A DNA stretch of 20,000 nt from Sarea resinae (taxonomy: Eukaryota), in the NCBI GenBank assembly GCA_026026165.1, contig JAPEUD010000013.1:489594-509593 (forward strand), written 5' to 3'. A program made the position numbers and the translations under genes. Within the stretch, counting starts at the first letter, position 1. Each line of letters begins with the position of its first letter. Positions 610 to 4,817 of the stretch are shown one piece after another. The notes below the pieces were generated by a model that saw only the letters and a program-made list of their open reading frames with translations, was not told the origin of the DNA and did no database searches.

Positions 610-616
610 TTACAAC
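610..616 (-). CDS. MDH: Putative alternative terminal micro-exon of MDH (G-TTG-TAA), giving the C-terminus ...PPPKL*
   Basis: Minus strand: donor AA|GTGATC at 763, branch GCTGAC at 641-636, acceptors CAG (623-621) and TAG (619-617). Splicing to the TAG gives AA+G TTG TAA = Lys-Leu-stop. Inferred from sequence only. Confidence 0.65.
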
Positions 617-759
617 CTATCTGACCACGCCAGCAGTCAGCCTAAAACGAGCTTTCAGAGTCGTAGTGTCACCCGCACAATTTGCACGCAGTGACGCACT
701 GAGAGCGCACACTACTTGAGACTTGCCGATAGGTAGTAGTATAAAGAAAGTGGGGTGGA

Positions 760-2150
760 TCACTTCGGTGGGGGGTTCTTGACGAAATCAATCCCTTTCT
801 CGATATTGCCCTTCAATCCCTTTGCGCTCGCTTCAAGTAACTTCTTTTCGTACTCATTGGCGTGTGGGAGAGGGTTGAGTGCTTTTTCGGCCCCAGAAGG
901 CTAAAAAAATTATGGTTAGTAAACATTGGGCTGGAGAATGTTTGAAGGGGGGGCATACTCCGAGCTCGATAGGCACAGAGAAGAAATCGACACCGGTTTC
1001 TTTAGCGATAGCGTCACCACCTTTAACACCAGGAAGATAGACATAAGTTGGCTCAATGATGCCATTTTCACCCTTAAAGGCCTGTATGACCTTCTCCGCG
1101 AAACTGAACCCGTTGATCAGTCATCATAACTCTTGAGAGAATCCAAAACGAGAATTTTACCGGAACCCAGCATAGGCCATTGACAGGGTCGCAGACCCTG
1201 CACCATCCTTGGCCTTGACAACCTCATCACCACCAAATTGAACACCTAAGATTTGATTAGTTGATCAACTCTTTGATTTCGTTGGAACCGAAAACTCACG
1301 GTTGACTAGAGCGTCCAATTTGTCCGCTGGGATATTGATACTCGGCTTGGCCTGGCTGAAGAGGGGAACAATTGTCTCTCCGGAATGGCCACCAACAACT
1401 GGTATGACCGTCTTTGCGGGATCCTTCTCGCCGGTGATGCTCTGCACAAAGGTTTCGGCACGAACGACATCTAGTGTCGTTACACCAAAGAGGCGCTTGG
1501 GGTCGAATACATCCGCAGCCTTCAGTACTTCGGCGGCAATGGGGACCGTAGAGTTGACGGGATTCGAAATAATGAGGACAAAAGCTTTAGGGCTGAATTC
1601 TGCGATTCCCTTTACGAGGTCTCGTACAATGCTGGCATTGATCTTGAACAAATCGTCCCGCGTCATGCCGGGCTTTCCTACAGAAATGTTAGCTCTCAAA
1701 TCCTCTCAGATTTGGGATATGTGAGGAATCTACTGGGAATTCCGGCCGGGATGAGGACAACGTCAGCCCCCGTCAATGCATGCCTGAGGCCGTCATTGGC
1801 TGGCAGATATCCAGAAATTTTCTACTCTTTCGTCAGCTTCAGTCACCCAATTCCCAGTGATGACAAGACATATTTACCGCTATTGACGAAATATGAGAAA
1901 GATCTGCAGTGACACCCGGTGTATTGACGACATCATAGAGAGCCAGATCGTCGACAAGAGGGCTAGCCTTCAAGAGAAGTGAAAGTGGCTAGCAGACTCA
2001 TTATCACCTCATCGTCCAAGTGAGAAATTGGCCATGGACTTACCTGTCCGATTCCGCCGGAGGCACCGAGAACAACTAAGCAGCAATCAATAACACATTC
2101 AAAAGAATTTATTAAGTGGATGGGTGCTTCTGAATACCTGCTTTGACCAT
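760..2150 (-). CDS. MDH: NAD-dependent malate dehydrogenase, cytosolic/peroxisomal type (no mitochondrial presequence), 330 aa
   Basis: Eight exons: 2150-2138, 2075-2044, 1988-1878, 1821-1734, 1677-1300, 1245-1161, 1103-959, 900-760 (993 nt). All introns are GT-AG, 54-62 nt. The protein starts [22 protein letters not shown] (Rossmann motif), contains [46 protein letters not shown] and [16 protein letters not shown], and ends VKNPPPK*. Confidence 0.97.
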
Positions 2151-2256: not shown

Positions 2257-3603
2257 CTTTGAAGGGGGAGGGAATAGATTTATGTTTCTCCTGTGGGCTG
2301 GTGAAAAGGAAGAAAGTTTTATGCCTGTATGGGTTGGCTTTGAGGTCGAGAGGACAGATTTTAAATGCTGTAGGGAAGGGGAATCGAGGAGACGATTTGA
2401 TAATGGACGATGGCGGGGTATGTGTTCACACCGCAGTCAAGTAGGCAAAACACCCCCAGCTTAGCTGTCGGGTCTACCGTAAGCGAAGACGTAGAGATGG
2501 TAGAATGATACCCACCTGGCAGATTGGCAAGACAAATTACATGATGGCACTTCGAGGTTGAGTACTGCTACCTCCGGGTAGCTAGGTCTGCAGCGTCAAG
2601 CATGAGGATCTACGTAGTGGACAGTACATATGGCGACATGAGAAGATGGGGAATTTTGGTGGGGAAATGACGGAGGAGAGTGCTCGCCCGATCAAGGTTG
2701 ACGTGCGGAGGAGAGCCCGGAGAAAATGCTACCCGATAATTACCTACCTCCGGCTTCAGCTTATCGACGCTGGAGCAGCACCTTGCCGTACGACGTACGT
2801 TCGAAGTACATGTACCTGACCGGTGATCCTTTTAGCAAGGTCCCTCGGTCCAAGCCCATCCATCGCATGGATCCGTTCTTGTTGCCTCGCCCTGCTCCTC
2901 TCGGGACTCTTCGGCGTCAATATCCAGAGTCGCGGGGATAAATCGGAACTGAAGTGGCGCTCTAATGTCAGTACGATGTTCTAAAGAGGGTCACTATTGG
3001 AGAGACCACGGCAACTCCTCCAGCTTCCAGTCCATGGGCAGAGTATGTGACGTTCGATTGGCCTCCGATCGGCAGTGTTCATCTGCCTTAACCTTGGGCG
3101 ATACGTTCCTCTGGTGGACTCCGGGTTCGCCATACAACGCTTACTCTGGAGTAGACTCGTTGCGTGGCGAATTACGGCCGGAAAAACCTCGAGGGCCGAG
3201 GCAATGTCGCCGTTGCTCTCTACCTCAGGACTACTACGTAGTACATACTCACAGTGGTCTATCAAATCAAAGATCCGGGACTGCCCGTCAGTCTTCGAGC
3301 CGGCGACCTACTCCGAGTGGAGCAGCTTGGTGCTTCACATAGCTGGACAAGGATATTCACACAGCGCACATACGATATCCAGGCCGGTAACAAGAGGGCA
3401 CTGGAGAAGCGTTCCTTTCCTCAAGATCTCGATACGTGTTGCTAGCACCGTGTCACAAAGATTGTTGCTGAAAACATGCCATCATGGATACCTCTGTAGG
3501 TCCCGGTGGTGACACAGCTAGGCCGTCAAACAGTGGATTCTCGCCATCTTGACCTAGATGCCCCTCCCTGCCCTTCCATCTAACAGGCACAGCTCCCAAA
3601 CCC

Positions 3604-4343
3604 TTAGGCAGAATCCTTCTCCGCAGCTTTCTTCGCCTTTACACCACGAAGTTTCTTCTCTGGGGTCTCCTTCTTCGGTCGCTGGGATTGGCGAAGAGCG
3701 CTGGCACGGGCCACGGCTTCTGCGCGAAGGTCCGATCTGTAGCCATTCTTCGCTGTCGTGTTGGCCACAATTTTATAAAGCCTAGAGTCAAACACTTTGA
3801 GCCTCTGGAATAATCAGGGGAGCACGAGCCGTAGACTTACTTCCGGCTAGGAGTGCTGGCGCTGAAGGTCGTCTCGTTGAAGCCGGATGCAGGCTTGTTG
3901 ACGTTCTTGGTTCTCTTCGTGATCACGGTGACGCCATTCTTCTCAGAAGACTGAACACCAACAGCCTATAAAAGCCATACCCGTTAGACTCGTCGAATTA
4001 GGTCCCGAAGGGATACCATCATGACTGAAAGGGTGAGGGTGCAGCGAGCGTTTTGCGGCGTACCTTATCGTTCACGAAGCCGCTGTACTGTACCAATTGT
4101 TAGTCCCTCATCGCCCTTCAAGAAGCTCAATGCGCCGAACCTTTCTAGAGTGCTTGTTCACCAAATTCAGGGGATCCCGGGAGAATTGAGCACCACCACC
4201 AGTTCTCCGCTTCACCAGATAGGTGTTGTAGGGGCCTGATATTGATTTTCAATCGGTCAATTTCTCCCCTATCATCACAACTTCTGGGGGAGATGATTCT
4301 CACGGGTAAGTTCCCAGATCAGGTCGGAAGGAGCGTCAGCCAT
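3604..4343 (-). CDS. RPL28: 60S ribosomal protein L28e (eL28), 153 aa
   Basis: Five exons: 4343-4304, 4235-4141, 4087-4064, 3965-3841, 3781-3604 (462 nt). Translation MADAPSDLIWELTRPYNTYLVKRRTGGGAQFSRDPLNLVNKHSRKYSGFVNDKAVGVQ...YRSDLRAEAVARASALRQSQRPKKETPEKKLRGVKAKKAAEKDSA* has the eL28 signatures (S.DLIW, FSRDPLNL.N.HS.KYSG, YR.DL...A.ARASA). Confidence 0.96.
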
Positions 4344-4817
4344 TTTTTGCGATATTCGTCAATCTTTGAATCCGTAACAGATCAACTCGAAGATGCAGAC
4401 AAACCAGTCGAAGTCGAATTCGTGACTTCGCTCAATCCATTGTGCGTCCTGCGAAACCCTCGGCATAAGCCGCTCGCTTAATGCGGCTGAACGCAAGAGA
4501 GCAAGAACGTTGATTTATTAGTCATCGTATGCCTGGAGAGCTGGTCCCGATCTGTCTGGATCTTACGTTGGGGTATGCGTATTCGCTCATTTATCGTGTA
4601 TGCGCCTAAACAACAGTTCCACTTCGTAGCTTCATCGCAACAGCTGCTCCTACAGGAGTCATTTTGACTGAGGATTCTCTATCTCGTCCTCTTCCTCCCT
4701 CTCTTCCAGGCCTCTTGGAGCTGTTCTGCTTTGACCATCAAAACCTCAAGTCTCTAGACAGAAAGACATCCTTCTTTTGAGCGTCCGTACATTTTTCAGC
4801 TAGACCACACCTTTGCC

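Follow-up and report, generated by a model that had tools for sequence, protein, structure and literature searches.

Introduction

Malate dehydrogenase (MDH) of Aspergillus fumigatus is expressed from three mRNAs, two of which are spliced to 3′ sites that lie 4 nt apart, while in the third and most abundant one the intron is kept (Hurtig et al., RNA 2020; PMC7491326). Retention and proximal splicing yield the same protein, to which distal splicing adds one residue, creating a putative peroxisomal targeting signal type 1 (PTS1). This splicing was inferred to be ancestral for Saccharomycotina plus A. fumigatus, to be more than 590 million years old, and to have given way to a duplicated gene pair in most budding yeasts (PMC7491326). 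We analyzed a stretch of 20 000 nt from Sarea resinae, which belongs to Pezizomycotina, class Sareomycetes (GenBank assembly GCA_026026165.1, contig JAPEUD010000013.1, positions 489 594 to 509 593 of the forward strand; the whole stretch is hereafter called the window). Its MDH gene, encoded on the minus strand, is a case of terminal-intron alternative splicing of the A. fumigatus type, the mechanism of which is already published. What is new is that RNA confirms the event in one more class, Sareomycetes, together with the extension of a published one-species observation to approximately 20 environmental fungal loci.

Closely spaced 3′ splice sites have also been reported for Yarrowia lipolytica MDH2 by Kabran et al. 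in 2012, where two sites 4 nt apart give a cytosolic isoform ending in AN and a peroxisomal isoform ending in AKI, as followed with fluorescent fusions (PMC3372373). The splicing was called unique among the hemiascomycetes examined in that study, and the paper bears out the use that an earlier note on the window, drawn up from the letters of the DNA, had made of this gene as a precedent. Cryptic PTS1 signals that fungal glycolytic enzymes gain through alternative splicing or readthrough were described by Freitag et al. (2012), as cited in PMC3798809 and PMC12316961. In Saccharomyces cerevisiae the MDH3/MDH2 pair comprises one peroxisomal enzyme with a PTS1 (SKL) and one cytosolic enzyme (PMC3798809), and the pair has been read as the replacement of an alternatively spliced single gene (PMC7491326). 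In a literature search, largely outside subscription journals, neither a description of the event for Sarea nor a survey across Pezizomycotina was found.

The terminal intron of the S. resinae malate dehydrogenase gene

The MDH gene and the elements of its terminal intron are located in the window as follows.

2150-760, minus strand: NAD-malate dehydrogenase gene, cytosolic type without presequence, 8 coding exons, 330 amino acids (aa)
2150-2138, 2075-2044, 1988-1878, 1821-1734, 1677-1300, 1245-1161, 1103-959 and 900-760, minus strand: MDH coding exons
763-758, minus strand: 5′ splice site of the terminal intron, GTGATC; from the sequence, from the start of both RNA joints at 764 and from the end of the main coding RNA contig at 764
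763-621, minus strand: terminal intron, proximal form, 143 nt, ending with CAG at 623-621; from the sequence and an RNA joint
763-617, minus strand: terminal intron, distal form, 147 nt, ending with TAG at 619-617; from the sequence and an RNA joint
640-636, minus strand: candidate branch site CTGAC, called from the sequence only, with its A at 637, 16 nt before the proximal acceptor
620-617, minus strand: tetranucleotide ATAG between the two acceptors, serving as the Lys wobble base and TAG stop of the proximal form, with its AG as the distal 3′ splice site
616-554, minus strand: shared last exon and 3′ untranslated region (UTR), weakly indicated by depth bins and an adapter loose end in RNA contigs of one run

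The eight exons joined to 993 nt in frame, encoding a 330-aa protein with the C-terminus NPPPK followed by a TGA stop at 762-760, which is included in the last exon (900-760). A Pfam search identified the domains Ldh_1_N and Ldh_1_C. An identical 330-aa protein was found in the database (P0001), labelled by its source as a metagenome-assembled Sarea resinae protein, and the nearest named relatives were MDHs designated ‘cytoplasmic’ from Aspergillus, Talaromyces, Blastomyces and numerous lichen-forming fungi, with 81–90% identity in exon 5. The N-terminus also resembled those of the ‘cytoplasmic’ MDH entries of Aspergillus, Talaromyces and Blastomyces.

The coding end of the gene reads CCG AAG TGA at 768-760, and a GT at 763-762 spans the last Lys codon and the stop. 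The upstream exon ends after the AA (765-764) of this Lys codon, and the first four bases of the intron are the G of AAG together with the TGA. The earlier note had proposed this donor at 763, inside the final Lys codon; it was confirmed in the sequence, and both RNA joints described below begin at 764. The other elements it had named were likewise found where it had put them, with GCTGAC at 641-636, CAG ending at 621 and TAG ending at 617, the acceptor region at 623-610 reading CAG/ATAG/GTTGTAA (slashes mark splice boundaries here and below). Translation of the spliced sequence gave the two outcomes that had been claimed for these acceptors. Proximal splicing (764^620) joins AA to the A at 620 and the TAG at 619-617, resulting in Lys-stop and the same protein as that from the unspliced mRNA, whereas distal splicing (764^616) joins AA to the G at 616, the TTG at 615-613 and the TAA at 612-610, resulting in Lys-Leu-stop and a 331-aa protein ending in NPPPKL. 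The candidate branch site resembles the CTAAC, CTGAC, CTGAT and CTAAT elements found near the ends of introns 3–7.

The terminal intron (143 or 147 nt) is longer than all of the seven coding introns, which are 54–62 nt each, and its donor GTGATC is weak. The earlier view that GTGATC is a plausible donor despite this weakness holds, since four of the seven coding introns are likewise without G at position +5. These four donors (GTATTC, GTAAAT, GTAGAT and GTAAAA of introns 1, 3, 4 and 6, respectively) belong to introns that were all fully removed in an RNA contig, and the strength of a donor evidently says little about whether this fungus uses it.

RNA forms of the terminal intron

RNA evidence was taken from the single public run in which this locus was found, the wood-decay metatranscriptome X1 (0.38 share of the sampled words), in the form of assembled contigs rather than reads. 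The contigs were aligned to positions 300-2300 of the window with a likeness threshold of 90. All three mRNA forms, with the terminal intron retained, spliced to the proximal acceptor or spliced to the distal acceptor, were present among the contigs of this run. A 1045-nt contig with a depth of 35 had all seven coding introns removed and ended exactly at 764; the table of joints gives all seven coding-intron junctions at a depth of 35, five of which appear among the listed pieces of this contig. The joint 620→764, in which 143 nt are skipped with GT..AG ends on the minus strand (CT..AC on the plus strand), was found in one contig with a depth of 52.7 and a shorter side of 30 nt. The joint 616→764 (listed as 614→762, with a cut of +2) skips 147 nt, also with GT..AG ends on the minus strand, and was found in one contig with a depth of 53.4 and a side of 28 nt. 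The intron-retaining contig was 200 nt long and extended over 591-791 without a gap at the terminal intron, at a depth of 77.7. The earlier note, which had made its proposal depend on junctions from 763, had predicted 764^620 and 764^616; both occur in the RNA contigs, exact to the base and with canonical ends, and the unspliced form occurs alongside them.

Introns 6 and 7 were without cover, the depth of their bins being the share contributed by adjoining exon bases, so that DNA carry-over does not account for the retained terminal intron. The limits of the contigs (764 for the coding contig and 791-591 for the retained one), as worked out from the tables, match what we infer to be the branches of a three-way bubble in a k = 31 graph. 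The retained contig differed from the window by six substitutions and by the deletion of a single base, each of them within the intron, indicating that the organism behind the RNA was a close relative or another strain and not the assembled genome itself. One of the differing positions is 636, where the candidate branch CTGAC reads CTGAT in the RNA strain.

The summed RNA depth was 269 in the bin 568-634, 26.6 in the bin 501-567 and 2 in the bin 434-500, and a loose end with Illumina adapter was located at 554. The low cover in bins 300-500 was not used as evidence. The RNA 3′ end is probably near 554, well past both acceptors. The earlier note had considered that polyadenylation before about 640 would speak against terminal splicing; the retained contig runs from 791 to 591, and the sole 3′-end signal is the adapter at about 554. 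Other RNA joints (e.g. 1240→1359) and several loose ends had non-canonical ends and ran into unlike sequence and were set aside as MDH transcripts of other organisms.

Comparison with described systems

The window gene shares with A. fumigatus MDH an orthologous cytosolic-type gene (exon 5 was compared with other Aspergillus ‘cytoplasmic’ entries, at 81–90% identity), the retained, proximal and distal mRNAs, acceptors 4 nt apart, and a distal form with one added residue and a PTS1-like end. The two differ in that the window organism belongs to another class, Sareomycetes, and in the proximal acceptor, which is CAG in the window and AAG in A. fumigatus. The window also has a weak donor (GTGATC) and a long intron (143/147 nt). 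In A. fumigatus the most abundant form is reportedly the retained one (PMC7491326), whereas the three contigs of the window were of comparable depth, which is not a measurement of abundance.

With Y. lipolytica MDH2 the window gene has in common a last intron with tandem 3′ acceptors, separated by 4 nt, and a frame shift that leads to a PTS1 isoform. In Y. lipolytica, however, the intron lies inside the coding region, is always spliced and gives the ends AN and AKI (PMC3372373), while the window has the stop codon in the donor, a retained form and the ends K and KL; a constitutively spliced intron within the coding region, without retention, is thus not what the window MDH has. In its mode of action the window gene resembles Y. 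lipolytica MDH2, but its architecture is of the A. fumigatus type. The likeness to the cryptic PTS1 cases of Freitag et al. is that a cytosolic enzyme acquires, through a minor mRNA or translation product, a C-terminal PTS1 hidden from the annotated coding sequence, but the enzymes in those cases were GAPDH and PGK and the extensions were longer (PMC3798809, PMC12316961). As in the S. cerevisiae MDH3/MDH2 pair, there would be one peroxisomal and one cytosolic MDH, but the yeast pair came about by gene duplication and is without introns.

Conservation of the tandem acceptors

We searched a metagenome contig collection with P0001, by which 595 stretches were matched and 352 were found to encode relatives, and the best 80 were taken. 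The last-exon peptide was matched in 66 of these 80 loci. AAG was the last Lys codon in 33 of the 40 loci ending in Lys. For the test set, loci ending in AAG plus stop with a 3′ flank of at least 250 nt were used, from which the exact duplicates L053, L065 and L073 were dropped and to which the window was added, resulting in 26 loci (25 environmental). An acceptor was counted when an AG located 35–450 nt downstream gave Lys-Leu-stop or Lys-Met-stop (K-L/M-stop), and a paired form was counted when an additional AG exactly 4 nt upstream gave Lys-stop. As a null, the 3′ flanks of the 26 loci were mononucleotide-shuffled 1000 times.

A K-L/M-stop acceptor was found in 20 of the 26 loci, compared to a shuffle mean of 1.5 (∼6% per locus) and a maximum of 6, and the paired form was found in 14 of 26, compared to a shuffle mean of 0.011 (∼0.04% per locus) and a maximum of 1, although the loci are related to each other and hence are not independent trials. 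With the window excluded, the corresponding counts were 19 and 13 of 25. These numbers agree with the earlier claim that two clean tandem outcomes are unlikely by chance, and the conservation in relatives that the same note had asked to be checked was found in the environmental loci.

The shared design can be written as yAG/RTAG/R-Leu codon-stop, in which RTAG provides the Lys wobble base, the proximal TAG stop and the AG of the distal acceptor. This RTAG unit follows an AG in 14 of the 26 loci, and the intron sequences printed around the motif share little else among loci. The stop codon of most relatives lies within a consensus donor (AA/GTGAGT, AA/GTAAGT or AA/GTAAGC). Three loci (L031, L066 and L072) are closer to the window, with the donor AA/GTGATT, an intron of 156–163 nt and only the distal acceptor, and the distal acceptor alone is kept in several lineages (L012, L022, L031, L047, L066 and L072). 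The C-terminus of L031, L066, L072 and L073 was ...FVHNPPAK, with K-L-stop only and no K-stop acceptor 4 nt upstream; this distal-only state is the one described for Lipomyces starkeyi (PMC7491326).

Some of the environmental contigs are transcript-like. AAA was the last codon in seven Lys-ending loci, three of which (L002, L004 and L005) are transcript-like contigs reading AAA TAG and then R-Leu/Phe-stop, as expected of proximally spliced mRNA. L009 has the same pattern with AAG TAG. Among other transcript-like fungal contigs, L001, L014, L016, L017 and L018 end in KL, and L010 and L024 retain the intron.

The distal frame of L005 and L007 gives Lys-Phe-stop (K-F-stop) instead of K-L-stop. 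SKF is sufficient for targeting of yeast MDH3 but not of luciferase (PMC12316961), and by analogy a terminal Phe may still work on an MDH. In the more distant L050/L053 (...SGVTFATK), splicing from a donor AA/GTAGTA to an acceptor located 113 nt downstream would produce a longer tail, ...NPTKL, and in these loci the conserved ‘NPP.K(L)’ end appears to be encoded entirely by the downstream exon. For loci with the ends ...NPPS, ...NPPQ or ...AKGA, a wider acceptor rule yielded no PTS1-like splice product.

PKL as a putative targeting signal and its annotation

PTS1 signals follow the consensus (S/A/C and variants)-(K/R/H)-(L/M/I), and the tripeptide PKL of the distal isoform fits this consensus when the variants are included. 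The earlier note had called PKL a PTS1 variant, and it is listed as such in fungi (PMC3709128). In Histoplasma, another member of Pezizomycotina, PKL fused to mNeonGreen was sufficient for peroxisomal localization, and several Pex5-dependent matrix proteins end in PKL (PMC13343957). Siderophore enzymes of several Pezizomycotina likewise have PKL as their predicted PTS1, and this signal has been cited as working in human, yeast and Penicillium (PMC3709128). A literature search on malate dehydrogenase, PKL and peroxisome gave no fungal MDH title among the matches listed.

Among the 120 best protein matches, the most frequent C-termini were PPK (47), PQK (12), PAK (11) and PSK (9), and K-L ends were found in only three (PKL, TKL and EKL, one each). 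We also sought pairs of annotations inside ten protein clusters. Histoplasma entries of 331 aa ending in ...NPPTKL (P0076 and P0121) occur together with entries of 330 aa ending in ...NPPTK (P0122 and P0124), and a Blastomyces entry of 331 aa ending in ...SPPPKL (P0156) stands beside a 330-aa ‘variant’ entry (P0154). An Aspergillus vadensis entry ending in ...NPPPKL (P0147) is found among the 330-aa entries of its relatives, and a JGI transcript ends in ...SPPPKL (P0077). The earlier expectation that standard annotation would miss the peroxisomal form is therefore correct for this genome (330 aa, P0001) and for most orthologues, but some pipelines do annotate the form with the additional Leu.

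Since most orthologue annotations end in ...K, any inventory of peroxisomal proteins compiled from annotated C-termini will overlook MDH in the majority of filamentous ascomycetes. A compact rule usable by gene finders would be a donor AA/GT(R)A... followed by yAG/RTAG/R-Leu-stop.

Interpretation and alternative explanations

We consider it likely that the window carries the S. resinae orthologue of the ascomycete cytosolic-type MDH, the last intron of which is processed in three ways so that the PKL isoform is peroxisomal. When the intron is retained, translation would stop at the TGA within the 5′ splice site, giving ...NPPPK, and splicing to the proximal CAG would give the same K-stop protein. 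Splicing to the TAG 4 nt further on would shift the frame and add one Leu, giving ...NPPPKL. By analogy with orthologues and with the known behaviour of PKL, Pex5 would then import the PKL-ending isoform, and the isoform ratio may be regulated by carbon source. One gene would thereby supply MDH to both the cytosol and the peroxisome, where it could serve the glyoxylate cycle or a redox shuttle for NADH from beta-oxidation. Peroxisomal MDH of this origin would close the glyoxylate cycle and the NADH shuttle in metabolic models without a second gene.

Several points weigh against this explanation. The RNA support comes from one run of one study, as contigs rather than reads, the depth of which cannot rank the isoforms or serve as an isoform ratio, and the strain in that run was not identical to the window (six substitutions and one deletion, all intronic). 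The sides of the junction contigs are short, at 28 and 30 nt, with a likeness threshold of 90, and such joints in metagenomes can stem from other organisms. Six of the 26 loci (L006, L007, L008, L032, L046 and L050) had no K-L/M acceptor by the search rule; a wider rule recovered K-F-stop in L007 and the spliced ...NPTKL tail in L050, and no PTS1-like splice product was obtained even by this rule in L006, L008, L032 and L046. The tripeptide PKL departs from the canonical PTS1 in its Pro at position −3. Finally, across five text supplementary files of the Histoplasma TurboID peroxisome study, ‘malate’ appeared only in malate synthase rows and no MDH was present, although the TurboID design compares peroxisomal with cytosolic labelling and thus disfavours proteins that are mostly cytosolic.

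That the junction contigs are assembly artefacts or sequences of another organism in the metatranscriptome is very improbable. Each junction was carried by one contig only, with the short sides and threshold given above, and metagenome joints are prone to foreign origin, but both joints fell to the base on previously predicted positions with GT..AG ends, and the contig boundaries (764; 591-791) are as expected of a three-way bubble at k = 31, of whose branches sides of about 30 nt are typical. Independent transcript contigs of other fungi have the same spliced forms, and curated genomes annotate pairs of 330 and 331 aa. Readthrough of the TGA stop codon, by which animal MDH1 is known to acquire PTS1 forms at UGA CU (PMC4207609), is scarcely credible as the source of a peroxisomal form here and was rejected: the stop context is TGA TC and not TGA CT, and the readthrough frame continues for 15 codons to a TAG and ends in ...ASLK, which is not a PTS1. 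It is also conceivable, but we consider it unlikely, that the 3′-end intron is real while the KL isoform is a by-product of sloppy acceptor choice without any targeting, and that what matters is the removal of 143–147 nt of 3′ UTR, with effects on mRNA stability or translation. The retained and proximal forms indeed encode the same protein with different 3′ UTRs, protein targeting alone does not explain why 14 of the 26 loci have kept the proximal acceptor as well, and MDH was not among the Histoplasma TurboID peroxisome lists searched. On the other hand, a Leu/Met codon with an immediate stop in the distal frame was kept in 20 of the 26 loci (shuffle mean 1.5) where the surrounding intron had diverged, several lineages keep the distal acceptor alone (the six named above), the equivalent Y. 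lipolytica isoform is peroxisomal (PMC3372373), and budding yeasts have swapped the splicing event for a separate gene ending in a PTS1 (PMC7491326). Given the conserved ‘silent’ proximal acceptor, a 3′-UTR function may nevertheless be part of the story.

Within the preferred explanation, in which one spliced gene supplies MDH to cytosol and peroxisome, we tentatively raise the possibility, itself rather doubtful, that the three-way choice is a selected and tunable device across Pezizomycotina, beyond an on/off PTS1. The ‘silent’ proximal acceptor would be kept as a competitor that caps or sets the peroxisomal share of the transcripts, and the proximal form would provide the cytosolic protein with a second mRNA that has a shorter 3′ UTR. 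Re-tuning might have taken place in those lineages whose donor is weak and whose only acceptor is the distal one (GTGATT in L031, L066 and L072), as well as in the window with its GTGATC. If so, the isoform ratio should change with the carbon source, for instance on fatty acids, acetate or resin compounds.

Other features of the window

A possible second MDH copy at 4738-4726 on the minus strand was rejected as a chance match: 13 nt there repeat the MDH start exactly (ATGGTCAAAGCAG), but the surrounding sequence contains no MDH reading frame. The motif CCTCGG, which we take to be the site of the fatty-acid regulators FarA/FarB, had 11 matches in the window compared to 11.1 expected, those nearest to the MDH start being at 2843 and 3196, and thus gave no signal. 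On the other side of the gene, a separate 295-nt RNA contig with a depth of 5.2 was aligned to 300-459 in the orientation opposite to that of the MDH contigs, although contigs do not show the RNA strand, and this points to a neighbour that is transcribed immediately past the 3′ end of MDH.

One further gene was located next to MDH.

3600-4345, minus strand: ribosomal protein L28e gene, just upstream of MDH on the same strand, starting with ATGGCTGACGCT near 4342

Its exon at 3965-3843 matched Pfam Ribosomal_L28e with an E-value of 8e-5, a match that does not reach the curated cut-off, the query having been just 41 aa long. In Talaromyces the accession numbers of the L28 and MDH entries are adjacent, and the MDH cluster lists L28 proteins, which suggests that the L28e-MDH neighbourhood is conserved.

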